Source: a bacterium (lineage in GTDB: Bacteria > Patescibacteriota > Minisyncoccia > Minisyncoccales > UBA10102). Taken from it: DNA of 50,301 bases. Both the position numbers and the translations under genes were made by a program. Shown here piece after piece: positions 27,051-50,301 of this stretch. The notes under the pieces are model-generated. The model was given only the letters and a program-made list of their open reading frames with translations. It did not search any database and had not been told where the DNA came from. The stretch's first letter is position 1. Each line of letters opens with the position of its first letter. The DNA is taken from contig JAUYMI010000029.1 of the NCBI GenBank assembly GCA_030698665.1, forward strand, positions 1 through 50,301, in the 5' to 3' direction.

Positions 27051-27078
27051 TTGACAGGGTTTTTTGTGGCGGTATACT
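27051..27078 (+). promoter_or_regulatory. strong promoter for the greA leader
   Basis: TTGACA 27051-27056, a 16-nt spacer, TATACT 27073-27078, beginning 3 nt after the EndoQ-like stop. Confidence 0.55.
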
Positions 27079-41561: not shown

Positions 41562-42819
41562 GCGGCACGTCTTGAGGAACGGCGTGACCGTTCTTGAGAT
41601 TGACAGTCCGAGTACGCAGGCTGCCACCGTGTTGGTGCTGGTCAAGACGGGTTCCAAGCATGAGACGAGGAAAGAGTCCGGCCTCTCCCACTTTTTAGAG
41701 CACATGTTTTTTAAGGGAACGAAGAAGCGCCCGACCCCGATTGCTGTCTCAGAGCCCTTGGATCTTGTGGGCGGCGTGTTCAACGCCTTCACCTCAGAGG
41801 AGTGCACAGGATACTTTGCCAAGGTGGACAGAGCGCATATCAAGCTCGCCATTGATTGGGTCTCAGATATCTTTCTTCACTCCACGATCCCAGTCCGAGA
41901 GGTGGAAAAAGAGAAGGGGGTGATCATAGAAGAGCAGAATATGAGGCGGGACGCCCCCATGATGCACATTGAGAGTATGTGGCAGCGCCTTCTCTACGGA
42001 GACCAGCCCGCCGGATGGGATATTGCTGGCACGAAAGAAAGTATTCAAGCCATGTCCCGAAATGACCTCACCTCGTACATGAAAGAGCAGTACGTCGCCA
42101 GCAATACCGTGGTCTGCATTGCTGGGAACCTCGGGCGTTCGGGAGCCGCGGCCCAGGTCAAGCGCGCTTTTCGTGCCGTTCCCTCTTCATCCCCCCGCGC
42201 GAAGCCCGAGGTCGTGGAGTTTCAGACAGATCCCAACGTGCTCTCAGAGTACAGAAAGACCGACCAGACCCACATTGCCCTCGGGGTGAGGGGGTATAAT
42301 CTATTCCACAAGGATCGCTTCGCCCAGGATCTCCTGGCCGTGATCTTGGGAGGCATGATGAGCTCCCGTCTATTTATTGAGATCAGAGAGCGCCTTGGAC
42401 TGGCATACTATGTCTCCACCCAGTCTGACTCCAATCCGGATACTGGGTTCGTAATGACGCAGGCGGGGGTAAGGAATGCAAACGCAGTGAAGGCGGTGTC
42501 AGCAATCCTCAAGGAGTACCGACGGGTAGCGATTCGCGGGGTGACGGCCCCAGAACTCAGAAAGGCGAAAGAGAACACGAAGGGCAAGTTGGCCTTGGCG
42601 TTGGAGTCCTCTGACCGGAAGGCGACCGCCTTTGGCCTCCAGCAGCTTTTGGAAGGCAGGACGTACAGCCTCCAAGAGATGTATGATATGATAGATAGCG
42701 TGAGGAGGTCTGACATCCACAGGGTCGCGAGCGACGTCTTCCGTTCAGAGAACCTGAATCTTGCGGTCCTGGGTCCCTTCAAGGACTCCTCCGAGTTTCA
42801 ATCTATTCTCAAGCTGTAA
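41533..42819 (+). CDS. M16-family (pitrilysin-like) zinc peptidase
   Basis: HxxEH motif in SHFLEHMFFKGT. 428 aa, two-domain. Confidence 0.85.
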   Translation: MSSQSASKHKRHVLRNGVTVLEIDSPSTQAATVLVLVKTGSKHETRKESGLSHFLEHMFFKGTKKRPTPIAVSEPLDLVGGVFNAFTSEECTGYFAKVDRAHIKLAIDWVSDIFLHSTIPVREVEKEKGVIIEEQNMRRDAPMMHIESMWQRLLYGDQPAGWDIAGTKESIQAMSRNDLTSYMKEQYVASNTVVCIAGNLGRSGAAAQVKRAFRAVPSSSPRAKPEVVEFQTDPNVLSEYRKTDQTHIALGVRGYNLFHKDRFAQDLLAVILGGMMSSRLFIEIRERLGLAYYVSTQSDSNPDTGFVMTQAGVRNANAVKAVSAILKEYRRVAIRGVTAPELRKAKENTKGKLALALESSDRKATAFGLQQLLEGRTYSLQEMYDMIDSVRRSDIHRVASDVFRSENLNLAVLGPFKDSSEFQSILKL

Positions 42820-43856
42820 TGGTTTCTCAGTACGGTTCCCTTGATATCACGTGGCCCACAATCTTCAAGCTTGCGCTTGCCGCTTTTGGCCTGTACGTGA
42901 TTTTTCTGATCAAGGACATCTTGGTCTGGGTACTTTTCGCTCTTGTCATTTCGGTGGTCTTTGACCCGGTCATTGATTTTCTTTGCAAACGCCGGATTCC
43001 CAGAACCCTGGCCGCTGTCCTGGTCTACTCTATGCTCTTTGCGTTCCTTGCCTTCACTATCTATAGTTCGGCCCCCTTCTTTCTTAAAGAGATTCAGCGC
43101 TTTTCCGCGCTCTTCCCTCAGTACTTTGAAACTCTAGCCCCTCCTTTGCAGGGAATCGGGATCACGGCGTTCTCTGACTTTCAAAGTTTTCTGGATGCGG
43201 TGGGCGGGAGCATTCAGCAGCTTGGGTCCAGTGCCGTTTCGGGCCTTTCAACCGTATTCGGGGGCCTCTTTTCCATGATCTTCGTCATCTCCATCGCGAT
43301 TTTCCTTTCCATTGAGGAGAAGTCCGTGGACCGCGCCATCTCCCTGCTTTTCCCAAAGAAGTATGAGGCCGTCGCTTTGAAGGTGTGGGGGCGAAGCCAG
43401 CGTCAGGTGGCGGGCTGGTTTCTCACTCGCCTGTTCTCCTCTGCGTTTGTGGGAGTTGCAACCTACATCGCTCTGGTGATTCTCAACGTTCCGTATCCCT
43501 TTTCCCTTTCACTTTTTTCAGGAGTTTTGAATCTTATCCCAATCGTAGGGCCTCTGCTTACTGGTGTCTTAATCGGAGGCGTAGTCGCATTGGATTCCAT
43601 ACCCAAGGCAATTTTTGTCCTGCTTTCCTTTATTCTCATTCAGCAGATTGAAGGAAACGTTCTCACCCCTCTTCTCACCAACCGTTTCGTCGGCCTGCCT
43701 CCCGCCCTTGTTCTCATCTCCCTGGCCATCGGAGGTCAGCTCTGGGGAGTGATGGGAGCCATTCTCGCAATTCCGTTAGCAGGCATCCTCTATGAATTCC
43801 TCCGGGATTTTCTCAAGAGGCGCCGCGAGGAGGAGGCGAAGGCCGCTCCTGTTTGA
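42819..43856 (+). CDS. AI-2E (PerM/UPF0118) family transporter
   Basis: 345 aa, ~8 TM, with NLIPIVGPLL and AILAIPLAG segments typical of the family. Confidence 0.85.
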   Translation: MVSQYGSLDITWPTIFKLALAAFGLYVIFLIKDILVWVLFALVISVVFDPVIDFLCKRRIPRTLAAVLVYSMLFAFLAFTIYSSAPFFLKEIQRFSALFPQYFETLAPPLQGIGITAFSDFQSFLDAVGGSIQQLGSSAVSGLSTVFGGLFSMIFVISIAIFLSIEEKSVDRAISLLFPKKYEAVALKVWGRSQRQVAGWFLTRLFSSAFVGVATYIALVILNVPYPFSLSLFSGVLNLIPIVGPLLTGVLIGGVVALDSIPKAIFVLLSFILIQQIEGNVLTPLLTNRFVGLPPALVLISLAIGGQLWGVMGAILAIPLAGILYEFLRDFLKRRREEEAKAAPV

Positions 43857-43881
43857 CGTTTTGAGCCAGTATGCGTATCCT
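43853..43881 (+). promoter_or_regulatory. candidate promoter of orphan cassette 0
   Basis: TTGACG (43853-43858, overlapping the AI-2E TGA stop), a 17-nt spacer, then TATCCT (43876-43881). Confidence 0.4.
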
Positions 43882-43902
43882 TTGAGCAGGAAGGAGAGAC
43901 AC

Positions 43903-44121
43903 ATGGCTCTTTTGCAAGAGGAGCTTGAGCTCGCCTGTGGGGAAAAGCAACGAGTCTGCTTCCAGGGAAGGGTCGTGGGTACGCTCTTTGCCGTGCATAC
44001 GAGCGCTGACTCCGTTCTCGGGGCGCTCGTCGTTACGAGGAGCCGCGTCACGAGATCCGGCCTTGAAGCTTTTACGGCTTGGTTCCCGGCAGCCGAACTC
44101 TCGCTCGCGGAACCTCAATGA
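43903..44121 (+). CDS. hypothetical 72-aa protein (orphan cassette 0)
   Basis: GGAAGGAGAG Shine-Dalgarno 5-14 nt upstream of the ATG. Sequence MALLQEELELACGEKQRVCFQGRVVGTLFAVHTSADSVLGALVVTRSRVTRSGLEAFTAWFPAAELSLAEPQ. A terminator follows immediately. Confidence 0.45.
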   Translation: MALLQEELELACGEKQRVCFQGRVVGTLFAVHTSADSVLGALVVTRSRVTRSGLEAFTAWFPAAELSLAEPQ

Positions 44122-44147
44122 TCCCGATACGTCGGGGTCTTCTTTTT
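44120..44147 (+). terminator. intrinsic terminator of cassette 0
   Basis: GATCCCGA-TACG-TCGGGGTC followed by TTCTTTTT. Confidence 0.65.
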
Positions 44148-44179
44148 GAGAGAAGAGATAATTATGATACAACACTCGT

Positions 44180-45616
44180 ATGGAGAAGTTTTATGTCACA
44201 AGTGCGATTCCTTATGTGAACGCCCGGCCCCATCTCGGTCACGCCTTGGAATTCGTCCAGGCGGATGTTATTTCCCGCTTTCATCGTCAGAAAGGGGAAG
44301 ACGTACTTTTGCTGTCCGGGAGTGACGACAACGCCCTAAAGAACGTGCAGGCGGCAGAACAGGCGGGGGTTCCCGTGGAGCAGTTCGTTGAAGAGAACGG
44401 TCAGCTTTTTTTTGAGCTGGCCCAGGCGCTTGGCGTGCACCTTGATATATTCCAGCGGGGAACCAGTAAGGAGCATCACTCCTCAAGCCAGAAACTGTGG
44501 GAGCTGTGTCGCAAGGCAGGTGACATCTACAAAGATTCCTATGAGGGGCTGTACTGTGTGGGGTGCGAGGTCTTCTACGTGAGAGGCGAACTCAACGAGA
44601 AGGGAGAGTGTCCCGAGCACCCCGGCAAGAAGCTGGAAAAGGTTTCAGAAGAGAACTACTTCTTCCGTCTCTCCAAGTATCAAAAGCAACTGGTTGAGCT
44701 TCTGGAGAAAGACGAACTGCGCATCATTCCAGAATCCAGGAAGAACGAGATGTTGGCGTTTCTCAGAGAACCCCTCCAAGATATCAGTATTTCCAGATCC
44801 AACGAGCGCGCCCGCAACTGGGGAGTTCCGGTTCCCGAAGACGAGGGGCAGAGAATGTACGTTTGGTTTGACGCTTTGAACATCTACCAATCAGGCATAG
44901 GTTTCGGGTCTGACGAGGGAAAGTACAAAAAGTGGTGGCCAGCTGACGTGCAGGTCATTGGAAAAGGCATCGCGCGCTTTCATGCCGTGTATTGGCCGGC
45001 CTTTCTTCTCTCAGCAGGACTTCCTTTGCCAAAGGTGCTGTTCGTGCACGGGTATCTCACCGTAGAGGGCAAGAAGATGTCCAAGTCCGTGGGAAACGTT
45101 GTTGATCCGTTCGAGCTGATTGAGCGGTACGGGGCAGACGCCCTCAGGTACTTTCTTTTGCGCGAGATTCCGGCAAGCGAGGACGGGGACTACAGCCGCG
45201 AGAAGTTTGAGACGAGGTACAATGCTGACTTGGCGTCCGGGCTCGGGAATTTGACGGCTCGAGTACTGACCTTAGCAGAAAAGAACAAGATGAAGGTTCC
45301 AAAACGTGTGGGGGATCGCCTTGGTTCAGCGCTTCGTGGGGCAAAAGAAAAGCTGGAGCAGGATCTTTCTGAGTTCCAGTTTGGTTCTGCCCTGGGAGCT
45401 ATATGGGAGCTTATTACCATATGCGACAGATATATTGAGGCAAAGAAGCCCTGGGAGGAATCAGAAGAACAGGAGGAGGTGATAGCCGACCTCATGTTTG
45501 TCCTCAGAGAGATTGGGGATATGCTGAAACCCTTTCTGCCTGAAACATCAGAGAGGATAGTAGCTCAACTCAAAACTGGCAAAGGGGAATCTTTGTTCCC
45601 TCGTATTGCTTCTTGA
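44180..45616 (+). CDS. metG: methionyl-tRNA synthetase (short form, no C-terminal tRNA-binding domain)
   Basis: HIGH (PYVNARPHLGHALE), zinc knuckle (CVGCE...CPEHPG), KMSKSVGN. Confidence 0.93.
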   Translation: MEKFYVTSAIPYVNARPHLGHALEFVQADVISRFHRQKGEDVLLLSGSDDNALKNVQAAEQAGVPVEQFVEENGQLFFELAQALGVHLDIFQRGTSKEHHSSSQKLWELCRKAGDIYKDSYEGLYCVGCEVFYVRGELNEKGECPEHPGKKLEKVSEENYFFRLSKYQKQLVELLEKDELRIIPESRKNEMLAFLREPLQDISISRSNERARNWGVPVPEDEGQRMYVWFDALNIYQSGIGFGSDEGKYKKWWPADVQVIGKGIARFHAVYWPAFLLSAGLPLPKVLFVHGYLTVEGKKMSKSVGNVVDPFELIERYGADALRYFLLREIPASEDGDYSREKFETRYNADLASGLGNLTARVLTLAEKNKMKVPKRVGDRLGSALRGAKEKLEQDLSEFQFGSALGAIWELITICDRYIEAKKPWEESEEQEEVIADLMFVLREIGDMLKPFLPETSERIVAQLKTGKGESLFPRIAS

Positions 45617-45642
45617 CAGGAGGCGCCTACCCCACGTATACT
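45613..45642 (+). promoter_or_regulatory. promoter of orphan cassette 1
   Basis: TTGACA (45613-45618, containing the metG TGA stop), an 18-nt spacer, then TATACT (45637-45642). Confidence 0.5.
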
Positions 45643-45648
45643 CTGTAT

Positions 45649-45876
45649 TGTGAGTATGCACGTAGTAAACATTAGGACAATTAAGCAGTACTTCTTTGGA
45701 TTTTCCGCCCGCTTAGGGCTGGGAGATTCGTTGCGCGCATAGACAGACATTGTCTTGAACCAGCGAGCCCTCCCAGCCCGGGGGGCTCTTTCTTTGAGCT
45801 CAGTACCCAGGGAAATCCCTGCATACTGCGCTCACATGGAGTGCAGACAGTACACGAAAGGGGGGTGGGTGCTTAC
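45649..45876 (+). promoter_or_regulatory. ~230-nt structured leader with alternative helices (attenuator-like)
   Basis: Helix GGGCTGGGAG (45716-45725) / CTCCCAGCCC (45770-45779) is mutually exclusive with the hairpin 45765-45788 (GAGCCCTCC-CAGCCC-GGGGGGCTC) plus TTTCTTT. A 38-nt imperfect palindrome follows at 45796-45833. Confidence 0.4.
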
Positions 45877-46272
45877 ATGAACTCCACCATCGTGGGAATG
45901 CCTGGCGTGGCGGCCGGCTCAAGGATCATCGACATCCTCTTGAGCTCGGATCTTCAAGAGCGCACTGCTCGTCGAGACAGACACGACGAGCTTCGGCAGT
46001 CGGATGTCCTCGTGGTCGTGCAGAGCGGAGCCGCTGGAGCGTCCTTCCAGAGGTATCCCCCGCACGGCATTTCTCCGGATCTTGAAGGGGCAGCCGGCTA
46101 CCTGATTGTTCCCCCGGTTCCAGAAGGAGAGTGCTCCCCTGAACTGATGGACATGATCATCACGCGGGCCAGGCATGCCCTGACCGCGGCGGACATGGCT
46201 CTCAACGGCGGCAGTGGGTGGAAGCCGGCCAGGGCTGGCGGGCCTCGTACCCGCCACGACAGCTTCGTGTAG
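45877..46272 (+). CDS. hypothetical 131-aa protein (orphan cassette 1), G+C-rich
   Basis: AAAGGGGGG lies upstream of the ATG. In this frame 46 of the first 63 codons end in G/C (hand count), whereas the overlapping minus-strand ORF puts those positions at codon position 2. I recognise no family. Confidence 0.5.
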   Translation: MNSTIVGMPGVAAGSRIIDILLSSDLQERTARRDRHDELRQSDVLVVVQSGAAGASFQRYPPHGISPDLEGAAGYLIVPPVPEGECSPELMDMIITRARHALTAADMALNGGSGWKPARAGGPRTRHDSFV

Positions 46273-46311
46273 GGCGCCTTCGCAGTCAGTCTCTAATCGT
46301 GTGGTGCATAA

Positions 46312-46347
46312 GGGGTTCCCTGGTATCCAGAGAGCCCCGTTTTCTTT
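46312..46347 (+). terminator. intrinsic terminator of cassette 1
   Basis: GGGGTTC-C-CTGG-TAT-CCAG-A-GAGCCCC followed by GTTTTCTTT. Confidence 0.65.
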
Positions 46348-46358
46348 ACAATATACCT

Positions 46359-47237
46359 ATGTATATAGACACGCACGGACACGTGAACTTCAACGCTTTT
46401 AAGGATGACGGCAAGGAGGTGCTGGATAGAGCGCTGAAGCTGAATACCTGGGTCATCATGCCGGGCTCCCAGCTCACGACATCTGCGAGGGCTGTTGAGT
46501 TGGCTCAGGAGTATGCGGAGGGCGTGTATGCTGCAGTGGGCCTCCATCCTATTCACTTAGACAAGCGGGAGGTGGACGTGCAGGAGGTGCAGTCAGAGGA
46601 AGTAAGGGAGCGCCCCTGGATGCTTTTTGAAACTCGGGGAGAAGAGTTTTTATACGAAGAGTACAAGCGTTTGGCTCAGAGTAAAAAGGTGGTTGCTATT
46701 GGAGAAGTTGGACTTGACTACTATCACCAGCCCAGTTCCCAGGGAAAGAGAAAAGAGTACAGAGAACGTCAGAAGAACGTTCTGAATCAGCAGATTGACC
46801 TTGCCCTTGAGTTGGACCTTCCCCTCATTCTCCACTGTAGGGTTGCTCACCAAGATATGATAGCTTTGCTGAGAGAGCGGCAAGACAAGAGCGGAGGAAA
46901 GCTGAGGGGTGTGATGCACAGCTATACGGGTACCTCAGAGCAGGCCCAAGAGCTCGCGGAGCTTGGATTTTCCTTTGGTTTTAACGGCCTCATCTTCAAG
47001 GACGTGCCTGCTTTGCCTCCTCCGTCAGAGGTTATTTCTTCAATTCCCTCAGATCGCATCGTGCTGGAGACGGATAGCCCGTATCTTGTGCCTCCCAAAG
47101 CCGGAGTTGAGAGAAACGAACCTGCCTTTGTACGCTTCGTGGCAGAGGAAATTGCCAGGGCGAAGGGCATTTCCGTAGAGGAGATTGCCTCTGTCACAAC
47201 TGCCAACGCCAAAGCCCTCTTCTCTTTATCTCCTTAG
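46359..47237 (+). CDS. tatD: TatD-family metal-dependent hydrolase/DNase
   Basis: YIDTHGHVNF, GEVGLDY, LILHCR, ETDSPYL. The ATG lies 6 nt after TACAAT (46347-46352). Confidence 0.88.
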   Translation: MYIDTHGHVNFNAFKDDGKEVLDRALKLNTWVIMPGSQLTTSARAVELAQEYAEGVYAAVGLHPIHLDKREVDVQEVQSEEVRERPWMLFETRGEEFLYEEYKRLAQSKKVVAIGEVGLDYYHQPSSQGKRKEYRERQKNVLNQQIDLALELDLPLILHCRVAHQDMIALLRERQDKSGGKLRGVMHSYTGTSEQAQELAELGFSFGFNGLIFKDVPALPPPSEVISSIPSDRIVLETDSPYLVPPKAGVERNEPAFVRFVAEEIARAKGISVEEIASVTTANAKALFSLSP

Positions 47238-47331
47238 CTTAGCTCAGGCATATTCATGCCTAAACGAGATTTAGTTTTCCACAGGTAGGAACTTTGTTTT
47301 TTCTGAGGAGACGGTATAATAAAACAATGCA

Positions 47332-47613
47332 ATGTCGCTAGTCGGCATTCCAGATAGCACCTCAGATGAGGTGAGTAGCGCGGAAGGAAGTATCATGGCG
47401 TCTCCTCGGGATTACATGACCCTTCAGGATCTGGTTGCCGTTCGACCATCGATCTCGTCGATTCGCACGGCACGTCGTCTAGCCAGGGAAGGGGCCTTCG
47501 GCGAGCCGATCCGGTGTGGGAGCAGGATTCTGGTCCCACAGTCGGCCGCCAGGGAGACCGTGACTCCTGACCGCCGCGTCGTCCACCAGGAGCCGTTGCT
47601 CCCAGCCGCCTAG
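47332..47613 (+). CDS. excisionase/MerR-like helix-turn-helix small protein (orphan cassette 2)
   Basis: The core MTLQDLVAVRPSISSIRTARRLAREGAFGEPIRCGSRILVPQSA matches the Xis-family HTH pattern (LT..E.A..L.VS..T..R....G.....R.G.R..V). TATAAT at 47315-47320. An alternative start at ATG 47395 has a GGAAGGAAG Shine-Dalgarno. Confidence 0.5.
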   Translation: MSLVGIPDSTSDEVSSAEGSIMASPRDYMTLQDLVAVRPSISSIRTARRLAREGAFGEPIRCGSRILVPQSAARETVTPDRRVVHQEPLLPAA

Positions 47614-47713
47614 TCCTCTCTCGGGAGGGCTAGCAACTAAGTTAAGGGATTTCGGAGTTCCTGTCGCAACAAGAAGTACCCCCGCCGCACGGCAGGTATC
47701 TCCGTTCCTGATT

Positions 47714-47758
47714 GTCGGAGAGGAGGACTCTCCCACTCCTCTCCGACAGCACTTTTTT
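47714..47758 (+). terminator. intrinsic terminator of cassette 2 (convergent with the glycosylase gene)
   Basis: GTCGGAGAGGAG (47714-47725) pairs with CTCCTCTCCGAC (47736-47747), followed by AGCACTTTTTT. Confidence 0.65.
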
Positions 47759-48579
47759 CAATCTTGAATAAGGTAGGAGTGAAGAGACTCGGCAATCAGC
47801 CCGTCTTGCACAAGAGACTCAATGATGTCATCCGCCTCCCAGGGCGCTTTTTGTTTGTGGAGTTGTTGATCAAGAAAGCTACGTAGGACTTTTTTCTCCA
47901 CGCCTTCTTTTTCCAGGAGCATCTTGACAATACTGGTTCGAAAAGAGCGGAAGGAACCCTCAAAGCGGCTCTGCTTTGCATAGTGGCGGCTTTGCCTGTT
48001 TACCTTTTTATCCTTCAGCTCTACGGCTCCATAGTCAAAGAGGGCGTAATGCCATTCCCGAGGATCTTCTCTCCACACCACCTTTTGGGCAATCGTCAAA
48101 ATATCTTTGTCTGATACCTCAGCTTTGTCTTTGAAGAAAAAATGCAGATAGACGCGCCTGATGTTTGTGTCAATGAAGGCCTCCGGGTTCAGAAAGGCAA
48201 AACAGGCAACCGCCCTGGCCGTGTACGGCCCAACTCCCGGAAGCTTCTCAAGCTCCCTCGGGTCTTTTGGAAATCTTCCTTTGTGTTCTTGTTGTATAAT
48301 CCTGGCTGTCTCTTTCAGATTCAGAGCCCGCTTCCAGTACCCCAGGCCTTTCCACACGGAAAGAAGCTCTCTGTCTGGGGCACGGGCAAGGGCTTTCAGA
48401 GTAGGGAATGCCTTGAGAAACTCAGGGTACTTTTCAAGCACCCGGGATACCTGGGTCTGCTGGAGCATGACCTCAGAGACAAGAATCTCGTACGGGTCCT
48501 TTGTCTTGCGCCAGGGGAGGTCCCGTTTGTTGTTTTTGTACCAACCAAGAACTGTTTTCTGAAGTTTTTGGACGCTCAT
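47758..48579 (-). CDS. HhH-GPD DNA glycosylase, MutY/Nth-like but without the 4Fe-4S cysteine cluster
   Basis: DLPWRKTKDPYEILVSEVMLQQTQV, HhH-GPD hairpin LPGVGPYTARAV, catalytic Asp context FIDTNIRRV. The whole protein has a single Cys and the C-terminal ~80 aa are unrelated to the MutY Nudix-like domain. Confidence 0.85.
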   Translation of the reverse strand: MSVQKLQKTVLGWYKNNKRDLPWRKTKDPYEILVSEVMLQQTQVSRVLEKYPEFLKAFPTLKALARAPDRELLSVWKGLGYWKRALNLKETARIIQQEHKGRFPKDPRELEKLPGVGPYTARAVACFAFLNPEAFIDTNIRRVYLHFFFKDKAEVSDKDILTIAQKVVWREDPREWHYALFDYGAVELKDKKVNRQSRHYAKQSRFEGSFRSFRTSIVKMLLEKEGVEKKVLRSFLDQQLHKQKAPWEADDIIESLVQDGLIAESLHSYLIQD

Positions 48580-48619
48580 GTCTCAGAGTATACCCCGCTT
48601 CCTTTTGTGGACAAAGTCC

Positions 48620-48647
48620 TTGACAAAAACCGCAAAAGGAGTATACT
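48620..48647 (+). promoter_or_regulatory. promoter of orphan cassette 3
   Basis: TTGACA 48620-48625, a 16-nt spacer, TATACT 48642-48647. Confidence 0.5.
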
Positions 48648-48700
48648 GTTTATATGTGCGGACAAAGGGTCTGCGCTGTTGTAGGAAGGGAGCTCCCTCC

Positions 48701-48796
48701 ATGATGCTCATTCGAGCAGGTCCGATGGTCGCCGTCACGACCAAGGTGAACGTCGCCAACGACATCGCGACCGGCGCCGCGGACACCGCCGCCTAA
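48701..48796 (+). CDS. possible 31-aa peptide MMLIRAGPMVAVTTKVNVANDIATGAADTAA
   Basis: GGGAG lies 8 nt upstream of the ATG. 27 of 31 codons end in G/C and G+C is ~65% (hand count), against ~53% in the first 100 nt of leuS. Confidence 0.3.
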   Translation: MMLIRAGPMVAVTTKVNVANDIATGAADTAA

Positions 48797-48902
48797 CACC
48801 GCCTCGACACGCGGTGAGAGGCGATCTCGCCGAAGAAGGGAAATTCCCATGGTTCGGACTCGCGCGAGTCCCTAGCCCGTAAGGGCGCACGTAGTCTCCG
48901 CA

Positions 48903-48969
48903 GGGACGGGGGTCATCAGTCATCGCACTGAGCCCCCGTCCCGCCCACTCCCCATTTCAGGGGTTTTTT
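48903..48969 (+). terminator. tandem hairpins plus T6 ending cassette 3
   Basis: GGGACGGGGG...CCCCCGTCCC (10 bp, with inner TCAGT/ACTGA), then CCCC-ATTTCA-GGGG-TTTTTT. Confidence 0.55.
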
Positions 48970-49007
48970 GATGGACAAAAGACCCGAAAAAGCGTAGAAT
49001 CTGCCCC

Positions 49008-50301
49008 ATGAGAACTCGCTACAACCACCAGGAGGTGGAGCGTAGGTGGCGGAAGATTTGGGCTGAAAAGAAGGCCTGGGAGGTTGATTTGGCAAGAGCC
49101 AAAAACCCGTACTACAACCTCATGATGTTTCCTTATCCCTCAGCTGAGGGTCTGCATGTGGGGAACGTCTACGCCTTCACGGGGTCTGATATTTTCGGAA
49201 GGTTCCAGAGGATGAGAGGATATGATGTCTTTGAACCCATCGGGTTTGACGCTTTTGGTATTCATTCAGAGAATTTTGCCATCAAGCAAGGCACTCATCC
49301 CAAAGAACAGACAGCCCAGAATGTGGCGCATTTTACAGAACAGCTTTCCCAGATGGGGGCTCTCTTTGCTTGGGACCACAAGATTAACACCACGGACGCC
49401 GCGTACTACAGGTGGACCCAGTGGCTCTTTCTCCAGCTGTACAAAGCGGGCTTGGCGTACCGGGCAAAGGCCGCTGTTGACTGGTGCCCCTCTTGCAAGA
49501 CAGTGTTGGCGAACGAGCAGGTGATTCAGGGAAGGTGCGAGCGGTGTGATTCGGAGGTTATTCAAAAGGAGTTGGAACAGTGGTTTTTTAAGATTACCAA
49601 GTACGCAGAGCGTCTTTTGGAGAATTTAGAAACAATTGACTGGAGCGAGAGAACCAAGCTTGCTCAGAAAAACTGGATCGGCAAGTCAGAAGGAGCTGAG
49701 TTGGATTTCCCCATCAAGGGCTCAGAGCATAAGATTGGGGTATTCACCACGAGACCCGACACCCTTTTTGGTGCCACCTATGTCGTTTTGGCTCCTGAGC
49801 ATCCCCTGGTGTCAGAACTCCTTTTGGGAGTTGAAAACAAAGCGGAGGTCAAAGAGTATATTGCCAAGGCCCGAACAAAGAGCGAGCTTGAGCGAGCCGA
49901 GCTTACTAAAGAGAAAACCGGAATTCAGCTACGGGGTGTTTGGTGCGTGAATCCTGGGAGCAAGGAAGAGGTGCCCGTATTCGTGGCCGACTATGTACTG
50001 GCCACGTATGGAACCGGGGCCATCATGGCGGTACCTGCGCATGACGAGAGGGATTGGGAGTTTGCAAAGAAGTATGACCTTCCCTTGCGTGTCGTTGTGG
50101 AGTCAGGGGAAGAAACCGATGGGGCGTACACGGGAAATGGAAGATTGGTGAATTCGGGGAAGTTTGACGGCATGACCTCCGAGGAGGCGCAAGATAGAAT
50201 CACAAAGGACGTTCGAGGAGAGAAGAAGATAAGATACCATCTTCGCGACTGGCTCATCTCGCGCCAGCGGTACTGGGGTCCCCCCATCCCCATTATATAC
50301 T
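49008..50301 (+). CDS. leuS: leucyl-tRNA synthetase, 5' partial (runs off the window)
   Basis: Hand translation gives MRTRYNHQEVERRWRKIWAEKKAW...PYPSAEGLHVGNVYAFTGSDIFGRFQRMRGYDVFEPIGFDAFG...CPSCKTVLANEQV...RCERC...TTRPDTLFGATYVVLAPEH...RDWLISRQRYWGPPIP. It is absent from the ORF track because no stop occurs in the window. Confidence 0.93.
   Translation, partial: MRTRYNHQEVERRWRKIWAEKKAWEVDLARAKNPYYNLMMFPYPSAEGLHVGNVYAFTGSDIFGRFQRMRGYDVFEPIGFDAFGIHSENFAIKQGTHPKEQTAQNVAHFTEQLSQMGALFAWDHKINTTDAAYYRWTQWLFLQLYKAGLAYRAKAAVDWCPSCKTVLANEQVIQGRCERCDSEVIQKELEQWFFKITKYAERLLENLETIDWSERTKLAQKNWIGKSEGAELDFPIKGSEHKIGVFTTRPDTLFGATYVVLAPEHPLVSELLLGVENKAEVKEYIAKARTKSELERAELTKEKTGIQLRGVWCVNPGSKEEVPVFVADYVLATYGTGAIMAVPAHDERDWEFAKKYDLPLRVVVESGEETDGAYTGNGRLVNSGKFDGMTSEEAQDRITKDVRGEKKIRYHLRDWLISRQRYWGPPIPIIY

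Follow-up and report, generated by a model that had tools for sequence, protein, structure and literature searches.

Four G+C-rich intergenic units of a Candidatus Wildermuthbacteria genome: probably unrelated fillers of variable gene junctions, one of them headed by a conserved candidate leader-peptide element

The window analysed here is a stretch of 50,301 nucleotides on contig C4 of a 29-contig, 572,409-bp genome with 52.8% G+C, assigned to Candidatus Wildermuthbacteria (Parcubacteria, Candidate Phyla Radiation (CPR); groundwater), and this report concerns four intergenic gaps in it which separate the genes for an AI-2E transporter, metG, tatD, an HhH-GPD glycosylase and leuS. Labels of the form G0xx denote genomes of relatives (G000 is this genome), L0xx fetched loci and C contigs. 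An earlier note on the window had described the gaps as self-contained, G+C-richer cassettes alternating with five housekeeping genes, and gene assignment by Pfam and the coordinates bear out this order:

42819-43856, plus strand: AI-2E transporter gene
43857-44179: gap of 323 bp, cassette 0
44180-45616, plus strand: metG
45617-46358: gap of 742 bp, cassette 1
46359-47237, plus strand: tatD
47238-47757: gap of 520 bp, cassette 2
47758-48579, minus strand: HhH-GPD glycosylase gene
48580-49007: gap of 428 bp, cassette 3
from 49008, plus strand: leuS

All four gaps contain promoter-like and terminator-like sites, a small open reading frame (ORF) with a Shine-Dalgarno (SD) sequence and a core of 60-65% G+C. 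The translations, 72, 131, 72 or 93, and 31 amino acids (aa) long in cassettes 0 to 3, agree with the contents given before (72, 131 and 31 aa and an Xis-type helix-turn-helix protein). The description of each cassette as a plain unit holds as far as the promoter- and terminator-like sites go, but cassette 1 consists of a leader and a cargo gene, and cassette 3 has an additional leaderless 16-codon upstream ORF (uORF). In blastn comparisons the cassettes showed no similarity to one another or to the rest of the genome except for one repeat resembling repetitive extragenic palindromic (REP) sequences, and neither target-site duplications nor terminal inverted repeats were found at their flanks. 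Rfam was searched over 43700-49100 with the gathering threshold and with E <= 5, and neither setting assigned a gap to a family. No integrase was seen in the ~5-kb region, although no dedicated genome-wide integrase search was run.

The same junctions were followed by a DNA search of 40 relatives and then by tblastn of the anchor genes on 14 fetched loci. The order AI-2E, metG, tatD, glycosylase (minus strand), leuS is kept across genera in 14 Candidatus Wildermuthbacteria relatives, and the distances between these genes vary widely:

AI-2E/metG junction: 34-6797 bp
metG/tatD junction: 8-7650 bp
tatD/glycosylase junction: 22-4831 bp
glycosylase/leuS junction: 40-152 bp, and 781 bp in one genome

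The last two gaps measure 22-150 bp in most relatives and otherwise hold unrelated genes. The four cassette peptides are encoded in none of the 14 loci, where the junctions hold rsmI, pheA, DAHP synthase, Nudix, RlmE, PEP-synthase-like, glycosyl-hydrolase-like and other genes. The genes rsmI, pheA and DAHP synthase, which many family members carry beside metG and tatD, are all absent from this genome, and the profile hidden Markov model (HMM) for pheA likewise finds none. The interleaving had been considered unusual. It does not stand as a peculiarity of this genome: the same junctions are variable slots in the 14 relatives, and it is the arrangement of conserved genes as separate transcription units, with fast-turnover DNA between them, that gives the appearance of interleaving. 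With a probability of roughly 0.6, the four cassettes do not form a single system and are fillers without relation to one another, specific to this lineage, that occupy ancestral boundaries between the transcription units of a streamlined genome.

The most informative of the four units is cassette 1. In the features below, coding scores come from a hexamer model trained on 332 long native genes, which gives 0.68 +/- 0.29 for true genes and -0.56 +/- 0.49 for wrong frames.

45613-45642, plus strand: promoter TTGACA-18-TATACT, the -35 box containing the metG TGA stop (scan, 11/12 matches; same promoter in G017, G013 and G001)
45650-45742, plus strand: predicted leaderless leader ORF MSMHVVNIRTIKQYFFGFSARLGLGDSLRA, starting at GTG 45650 or ATG 45656, 28-30 codons, with its stop in the upper hairpin (coding score 0.64)
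45705-45797, plus strand: four-segment RNA followed by a U-run (folding z = -5.4)
about 45705-45712: segment 1, CCGCCC
45716-45733: segment 2, GGGCUGGGAGAUUCGUUG
45761-45779: segment 3, CAGCGAGCCCUCCCAGCCC
45780-45785: segment 4, GGGGGG
45877-46272, plus strand: cargo ORF of 131 aa, 0.64 G+C, without recognisable homologues (ORFan), coding score 0.37, top of six frames
46312-46352, plus strand: terminator GGGGTTCCCTGG...CCAGAGAGCCCC plus T-run, overlapping the TACAAT -10 box of leaderless tatD (read from the sequence)

The segments allow alternative pairings, 2:3 as antiterminator and 3:4 or 1:4 as terminator, the latter listed at 45765-45788 in the terminator scan. The first ~190 bp (45613-45800) have counterparts in the metG-tatD interval of other genera (nhmmer, blastn), and at the other end the stretch before tatD is kept, cassette-1 positions 689-736 matching L011, L031 and L013. 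With a covariance model of five copies the element is detected in 21 of the 36 genomes of the family, which represent 16 of 24 genera; each has 1-2 copies, mostly between metG and tatD. A second model, based on 28 copies, detects it in 23 genomes from 15 further families of the order. In the copies examined over their full length (the window, G017, G013 and G001) a promoter of the TTGACA...TATACT type precedes a transcription start with a conserved (G/A)TGAGTATG. Of the 28 aligned copies, 26 retain an ORF of 24-37 codons that begins at the conserved 5' ATG, and the segments have the consensus CCYCYC (1), UGGGAG..UUCGC (2), GCGAA..CUCCCA (3) and GGGAGG plus U-run (4). Compensatory changes are present in 13 of 21 pairs of helices 2:3 and 1:4, a level reached by 0 of 500 shuffles and with slid controls far lower. 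The conserved nucleotides UGGGAGAUUUUCG are translated in two frames among the copies, giving LGDF or GRFS, which suggests that the RNA is the primary constraint and that the ORF is also maintained. In G002 and G051, leaders of the form ...NFFFFAFF(I/T)P... stand immediately upstream of pheA (PDT + ACT), with DAHP synthase as the next gene in G051, and a DAHP synthase gene is found in the same interval of several other relatives. Judged by its sequence, this is an order-wide conserved candidate leader-peptide element, of a known kind of mechanism, in an unexpected lineage and with an unexpected cargo. The earlier note had named, as the finding that would tell against its proposals, ancient conserved leaders belonging to known Rfam families; a conserved leader is what we find for the 5' part of cassette 1 only, and it belongs to no Rfam family. 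The Phe_leader, Leu_leader, Trp_leader, His_leader and Thr_leader models of Rfam gave no match over the interval searched at either threshold, and the leader peptides have no Pfam or NCBIfam family. Full-text literature searches found no paper that deals with leader peptides or with leaderless promoters in bacteria of the CPR.

A ribosome that stalls on the Phe or other hydrophobic codons would mask segment 1, so that 2:3 could form, segment 4 would stay unpaired and transcription would read through. This was modelled for 26 elements by folding with a 28-nt ribosome footprint placed at every codon, a purely thermodynamic treatment. In the element of the window the pairing of segment 4 is 0.78 in the free RNA and 0.79 with the ribosome at the stop codon; once the A-site occupies G15-A18 of ...YFFGFSA..., it falls to 0.01. 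For the elements linked to pheA, terminator pairing drops to 0.01-0.02 at the last Phe codons. The modelled stall window takes in only the third Phe of YFFGF in the window leader and the last two Phe of FFFFAFF in the pheA-linked relatives. The scan lists no promoter-like site between the leader terminator and the cargo ORF (45643-46359), and the 131-aa ORF probably depends on read-through for that reason. Nor is a minus-strand promoter-like site, as expected for the antisense RNA of a type I toxin-antitoxin pair, listed between 45643 and 45800.

Among 1.84 billion representative proteins the 131-aa product matches itself and one low-complexity sequence, and a PDB sequence search gave nothing relevant. 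In several relatives the element is followed, before tatD, by small helical proteins of 55-92 aa with the motif ..LERL..K...IR.RL.....LS..EK..A..RLEKTE.. and no Pfam family (L013:5176-5358, L052, L054 and L060, in G001, G006, G047 and G016). A relationship of the 131-aa ORF to the small helical proteins after the element (G001, G006, G016, G017 and G047) was considered and rejected, the hhalign probability being 0.06. How quickly such cargo changes is seen in the same-genus pair G021:C2 and G051:C27, whose shared DNA is ~90% identical: the two conserved elements themselves are 89-90% identical, whereas the DNA between them is non-homologous and measures 780 and 2846 bp, respectively. Here the cargo turns over faster than the switches. 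The DAHP synthase gene of G051:C27 (loci L050/L066), ~1.3 kb downstream of the Phe-type leader, has a G+C content of 0.66 and a G+C content at third codon positions (GC3; GC1 and GC2 likewise for the first and second) of 0.90 in a neighbourhood of ~0.40-0.50. It was probably gained recently from a donor of high G+C content and stands behind pheA and a putative Phe attenuator. These slots probably do receive foreign high-G+C DNA, but the four ORFans cannot be assigned to any donor.

Cassette 0, between AI-2E and metG, has a simpler layout:

43853-43881, plus strand: promoter-like site TTGACG-17-TATCCT, the -35 box containing the AI-2E TGA stop (scan, 9/12 matches)
43903-44121, plus strand: ORF of 72 aa after GGAAGGAGAG, an ORFan (NCBI gene call, singleton cluster)
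44120-44147, plus strand: intrinsic terminator, 8-bp stem plus T-run (scan)

It occupies the place of rsmI, the gene for the 16S rRNA C1402 2'-O-methyltransferase, which Pfam identifies between AI-2E and metG in 9 relatives, and no residual similarity to rsmI was detected in it. Its 72-aa product finds only itself in a collection of 5.8 billion clusters, and the cassette folds no better than shuffles (z = -1.1).

Cassette 2 combines a repeat with a gene whose product has a recognisable predicted fold:

47257-47285, plus strand: REP-like repeat in single copy, 29 nt, core TAAACGAGATTTAG (repeat search)
47316-47321, plus strand: TATAAT -10 box without a -35 box (read from the sequence); ATG 47332 lies 10 nt on, so that the mRNA would be nearly leaderless
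47332-47613, plus strand: ORF of 93 aa from 47332, or of 72 aa from ATG 47395 after GGAAGGAAG, predicted Xis/BldC-type winged helix
47713-47757: perfect 13-bp stem (47713-47725 / 47736-47748) plus T-run, a terminator shared with the convergent glycosylase gene

About 100 nt of hairpins lie between the gene and the shared terminator, and folding of the cassette gives z = -3.3. The Xis-type assignment made in the earlier note is supported by structure prediction. The AlphaFold2 single-sequence model, with a predicted local distance difference test score (pLDDT) of 75 overall and 85-90 over residues 10-50, has a beta-alpha-alpha-beta-beta core and a C-terminal tail of ~25 residues at low confidence. 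The top Foldseek matches in the PDB are lambda Xis (1rh6/2ief) and 2og0, with 36% identity over 41-45 columns, a root-mean-square deviation of 1.5-1.6 A and a probability of 1.0, followed by HK022 Xis, BldC and Pukovnik Xis; the E-values are marginal (0.02-0.4) owing to the small size of the domain. At the sequence level the Pfam family Exc scores 16.2 bits against a cut-off of 23 (E = 0.011) and PHROG 66 has E = 0.075. The 72-aa form has no sequence homologue in the 5.8-billion-cluster collection and none in IMG/VR. From the model, cassette 2 is predicted to encode an Xis/BldC-fold DNA-binding protein. Its neighbours are tatD and the glycosylase gene, and no att-like or direct repeats flank it.

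The earlier note had seen no repeats, which does not hold for cassette 2, where the REP-like repeat belongs to a dispersed family. Its core occurs in 12 exact and 4 one-mismatch copies in the genome, all of them intergenic. Five copies surround a gene for a 238-aa Y1_Tnp protein (IS200-like, of the REP-associated tyrosine transposase (RAYT) type; E = 1.5e-6) at C17:25717-26433, in an array at C17:25672-26584. Within the family, G042 has 57 occurrences of the 14-mer, most of them in inverted pairs, and G006 and G047 have 3-4 each; the remaining genomes, including others of the same genus, have none. No evidence was found that the repeat moved cassette 2.

Cassette 3 starts back to back with the glycosylase gene:

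48620-48647, plus strand: promoter TTGACA-16-TATACT, back to back with the glycosylase promoter (48614-48587, minus strand) (scan)
48654-48704, plus strand: putative leaderless 16-codon uORF MCGQRVCAVVGRELPP, 6 nt past TATACT (read from the sequence)
48701-48796, plus strand: ORF of 31 aa, GC3 0.84, coding score 1.11, native-like
48797-48970, plus strand: hairpin-rich 3' part and terminator (48947-48964 plus T-run)

The TGA of the uORF overlaps the ATG of the 31-codon ORF as ATGA, and the uORF crosses a 12-nt palindrome, AGGGAGCTCCCT (48687-48698; also given as AGGGAGCUCCCU), that holds the SD of the 31-codon ORF. This arrangement suggests translational coupling of the two ORFs, with the palindrome masking the SD. 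The whole transcript folds far better than shuffles (z = -5.2). Two variants are present in Logan contigs of the source study. One, in run X2, is 88% identical to 48681-48767 and has a different upstream context; the other, in run X1, is ~90% identical to 48872-49018 and precedes leuS, and in its terminator stem the substitutions C52>T and G61>A compensate each other. The DNA of cassette 3 was not found in 300 genomes of the order (DNA search) nor in JGI metagenome contigs (pattern scans).

A consensus scan finds 6 promoter-like sites, compared with 2.1 +/- 1.2 in shuffles, and 15 terminator-like sites, compared with 6.0 expected, among them 44120, 45765 and 48947. The claim that each cassette has its own promoter and terminator is supported by the scan for cassettes 0, 1 and 3; cassette 2 has only the TATAAT box without a -35 box, plus the 13-bp stem and T-run. 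The -35 boxes described as overlapping or abutting upstream stop codons at three sites are there: the TGA stops of the AI-2E and metG genes fall within TTGAC boxes (43853, 45613), and at 27052 the box begins 3 nt past the stop codon. Genome-wide, 16 of 514 genes have their TGA in such a box, compared with roughly 3 expected on a rough base-frequency estimate, and this looks like a habit of genome compaction. Half of these 16 boxes (8/16) are accompanied by a -10 box at 16-19 nt, at sites that include 43853, 45613 and the 8350 region. Leaderless starts of the flanking housekeeping genes from -10 boxes, also noted before, agree with the distance from -10 box to start codon, which is 6-7 nt for tatD, leuS and the glycosylase gene and 11 nt for metG; a leaderless-type spacing is found at ~18% of longest-ORF starts in the genome and at 3.4% of random positions. 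By this spacing tatD, leuS and the glycosylase gene look leaderless. Upstream of leuS the promoter scan gives:

48972-49000, plus strand: leuS promoter TGGACA-17-TAGAAT, 7 nt before the ATG (leaderless type)

The composition of the cassettes departs from that of the host genes, as hand counts had indicated and a sliding-window G+C profile confirms. The small ORFs have G+C contents of 0.60, 0.64, 0.65 and 0.65, compared with 0.50-0.52 in the flanking genes; 200-nt windows that reach 0.64 G+C belong to the uppermost 1% genome-wide, and these 5 kb contain 3 of the 34 regions of that kind. For whole gaps the values are 0.55-0.58, compared with 0.51 +/- 0.05 in 68 other gaps of at least 300 bp. The excess is real, and moderate rather than extreme. 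In the annotated frame of all four ORFs GC1 > GC2 < GC3, with GC2 (0.49-0.56) 2-3.6 standard deviations above that of long native genes and GC3 up to 0.84. The cassette proteins are rich in Ala, Gly, Arg and Pro, the units also contain G+C-rich hairpins, and the excess would reflect both, the coding sequence being young or foreign. Where lower-G+C relatives have small helical genes in the corresponding slot, those too have 0.60-0.63 G+C, so that slot cargo may owe its G+C content to amino-acid composition.

The coding scores of cassettes 0 to 3 are 0.16, 0.37, 0.00 and 1.11, the annotated frame being the best of six in every cassette, and a strong SD stands at the proper distance before every small ORF. 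The 72-aa and 131-aa ORFs are also called as genes in the public NCBI annotation, as singleton clusters. We infer that the ORFans are translated. Mirror antisense ORFs of 112 and 120 aa are present; antisense and alternative ORFs have no Pfam family, and the antisense ORFs tested have no PHROG. PHROGs and IMG/VR gave no match for the small ORFs apart from the weak PHROG 66 match of the cassette-2 protein. The database searches of peptides and RNA that had been suggested thus returned no homologues for the ORFans and no Rfam family.

Taken together, the locus is best read as a series of exchange-prone transcription-unit boundaries filled with orphan cargo. Throughout the family the AI-2E, metG, tatD, glycosylase and leuS genes would each have their own, mostly leaderless, promoter, with the DNA between them turning over fast. 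The slot of cassette 0 holds an SD-led 72-aa ORFan where relatives have rsmI. In that of cassette 1 a strong promoter would drive a leaderless 28-30-codon hydrophobic, Phe-rich ORF and the antiterminator/terminator segments, followed by a 131-aa ORFan needing read-through. The slot of cassette 2 carries a REP-like copy and then the predicted gene for a small Xis/BldC-fold protein with a shared terminator, and that of cassette 3 a predicted strong promoter, a uORF overlapping a 31-codon ORF with its SD in a palindrome, hairpins and a terminator.

A number of observations weigh against this picture. The alignment behind the covariation was fitted to the model, which biases it towards the structure, and in about half of the 26 modelled elements the stalled ribosome lowers terminator pairing only to 0.3-0.8, a partial switch. 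In the leader of the window only 3 Phe and 1 Tyr fall within a stretch of 5 codons, and the cargo is no biosynthetic gene; Phe-rich leaders outside the family also precede unknown genes, and the hydrophobic leader peptide could itself be the product. The AlphaFold2 single-sequence model of the 131-aa product is poor (pLDDT 41), and the coding scores of cassettes 0 and 2 fall between those of true genes and wrong frames. The G+C excess is given no mechanistic explanation by this reading. Finally, the sequencing runs listed with this sequence are three DNA runs only; two of them carry the same strain, with no presence/absence polymorphism of the cassettes, and the third, from the same study, holds none of the sequence.

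Some of these points lead to other explanations. That the cassette-1 element simply encodes a type I toxin or a small hydrophobic peptide of the membrane, and has a long terminator hairpin without being a regulatory switch, is unlikely, if still to be reckoned with. The retention of the ORF in 26 of 28 copies, its hydrophobic core and its recurrent (R/K)LG(D/G)F tail fit such a gene, as does a cargo that is variable and often unknown; moreover, the nested fold (1:4 + 2:3) and the 3:4 fold both place segment 4 in a stem beside the U-run, so termination could be constitutive. A peptide gene would hardly account for UGGGAGAUUUUCG being read in two frames, however, nor for FFFFAFF leaders ahead of pheA and DAHP synthase; the hydrophobic stretch is often just 9-12 residues long, the peptides match no known family, and in most copies an SD-led ORF follows ~20-150 nt downstream, in the window with no promoter of its own detected. 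For the G+C-rich parts of cassettes 0, 1 (cargo) and 3, structured non-coding RNAs with incidental ORFs come into question, and here the folding z-scores of -5.2 (cassette 3) and -3.3 (cassette 2), the unusually high GC2, the ORFan status of the ORFs and the low pLDDT of the 131-aa model are in favour; high G+C also keeps frames open by chance, and mirror ORFs of 112 and 120 aa exist. Against this stand the well-spaced SD of every ORF and the annotated frame leading in all four, a cassette 0 that folds like its shuffles, a cassette-2 product that is predicted to fold as a known domain, the silence of Rfam even at E <= 5 and the lack of a homologous RNA in the relatives searched; we regard this explanation as improbable.

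Recent gain of the small ORFs, as micro-genes or gene fragments, from a higher-G+C donor was one of three origins put forward in the earlier note, and on present evidence it seems doubtful. It would explain cores of 0.60-0.65 G+C in a genome of 0.528, with GC3 up to 0.84 and GC2 raised by +2 to +3.6 standard deviations. A relative's equivalent slot holds the probably foreign DAHP synthase gene (GC3 0.90) amid much lower G+C, which lends the proposal indirect support; part of the cassette-3 ORF recurs in another context within the same community, and cassettes 2 and 3 are insertions relative to most relatives. Yet no homologue was found among the 1.84 billion representatives (131-aa ORF), in the 5.8-billion-cluster collection (72-aa ORFs), in Pfam, PHROGs and IMG/VR or in the 300 genomes of the order (cassette 3), the search for flanking repeats was negative, and no integrase was seen in the ~5-kb region; the coding score of the cassette-3 ORF (1.11) is that of a native gene, and the helical genes of lower-G+C relatives reach 0.60-0.63 G+C in the same slot. 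Transfer is accordingly not demonstrated. A fragmented mobile element, another proposed origin, is not supported, its sole trace being the single REP-like copy in cassette 2. The remaining one, a set of small regulators or small RNAs, is partly right, the conserved leader-peptide/terminator element of cassette 1 and the Xis/BldC-fold protein of cassette 2 being the parts that fit. Very improbable, in our view, is that the fillers are eroded remnants of the genes which relatives hold in these slots (rsmI, pheA, DAHP synthase and others). rsmI and pheA are indeed missing exactly where relatives have them, and a weak tblastn match (E = 0.012, 2-kb database) aligns residues 100-139 of the G051 DAHP synthase with the C-terminal end of the 131-aa product, in the frame of that ORF, but the rsmI, pheA and DAHP synthase HMMs are silent on six-frame translations, and 2501 ORFs from relatives compared with the gaps gave chance-level matches only. 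As a gene remnant the DAHP synthase match was rejected after a genome-wide null test, in which, by the score of that HMM, the cassette-1 windows come no higher than 119th among 1826 windows of the genome. Neutral decay should, besides, push G+C down towards the intergenic 0.49-0.51 and not up.

Returning to exchange-prone boundaries with orphan cargo, it is tempting to speculate further, on a scenario that we ourselves hold to be a long shot. The boundaries might serve as docking slots for exchangeable single-gene units, and the near-invariant, leaderless attenuators might be portable sensors of charged hydrophobic or aromatic tRNAs, retained after the loss of pheA and DAHP synthase and gating orphan cargo in such a way that an auxotrophic symbiont reads the amino-acid supply of its host; the cargo would be swapped by recombination at the conserved promoter, attenuator and terminator, with no integrase. 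CPR bacteria are thought to be largely auxotrophic and poor in regulation, and a putative ribosome-stalling attenuator conserved across an order of Parcubacteria is unexpected for that reason. An attenuator that is sometimes still on pheA and DAHP synthase, and here precedes a gene without relatives, offers a testable handle on nutrient sensing. The data also show turnover of small genes at transcription-unit boundaries in a 0.57-Mb genome. They caution against taking G+C-rich orphan ORFs as evidence of transfer from a host, and the apparent regularity of the four cassettes stems from the architecture of gene boundaries rather than from any mechanism that they share.

Chromosomal hotspots of gene flux between core genes are known from bacterial pangenomes, and the present junctions resemble them in having conserved flanking core genes and variable content between, even within a genus. 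They differ in that the slots are very small and hold single-gene units with their own promoter and terminator, with no integrase or tRNA anchor. Integron cassettes with attC sites are superficially similar, being small single-gene units in which a conserved imperfect hairpin lies beside a variable cargo. An integron array was nevertheless rejected: the hairpin arms GTTGGGAG...CTCCCAAC run in reverse polarity relative to R''(RYYYAAC)...R'(GTTRRRY), the GTT core is missing from many copies, and the units alternate with housekeeping genes and have a promoter each, with no integrase gene seen in the ~5-kb region (no search of the whole genome having been aimed at one). The cassette-2 protein shares its predicted winged-helix fold with lambda Xis, BldC and mycobacteriophage Xis (MerR-like, HTH_17), but falls below the Pfam cut-off and has no sequence homologues, and no integrase, att site or prophage gene was seen in the ~5-kb region. 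The repeat upstream of it is similar to REP/RAYT systems as a short extragenic repeat with a palindromic core, intergenic throughout, with an array at a Y1_Tnp gene, a patchy distribution and inverted pairs in G042; unlike in those systems, its host is a CPR bacterium with a genome of 0.57 Mb, copies are few, and cassette 2 has a single one.

The closest comparison is that of the cassette-1 element with the leader-peptide attenuators of amino-acid operons (E. coli pheL-pheA, leuL, ilvL/ivbL and trpL; C. glutamicum aroR-aroF). The candidate element departs from these in that its leader ORF is leaderless here, its RNA arms are near-invariant across genera, and segments 1 and 4 can also pair, nesting 2:3. 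The cargo in the window is a 131-aa ORFan and not a pathway gene, the pathway link holding in the relatives G002 and G051, through pheA/DAHP synthase. What it shares with them is a short 5' ORF with hydrophobic or Phe codons, four RNA segments forming a mutually exclusive antiterminator and terminator, a U-run and then the ORF to be regulated; and in relatives the FFFFAFF version stands ahead of pheA and DAHP synthase, much like pheL-pheA of enterobacteria.

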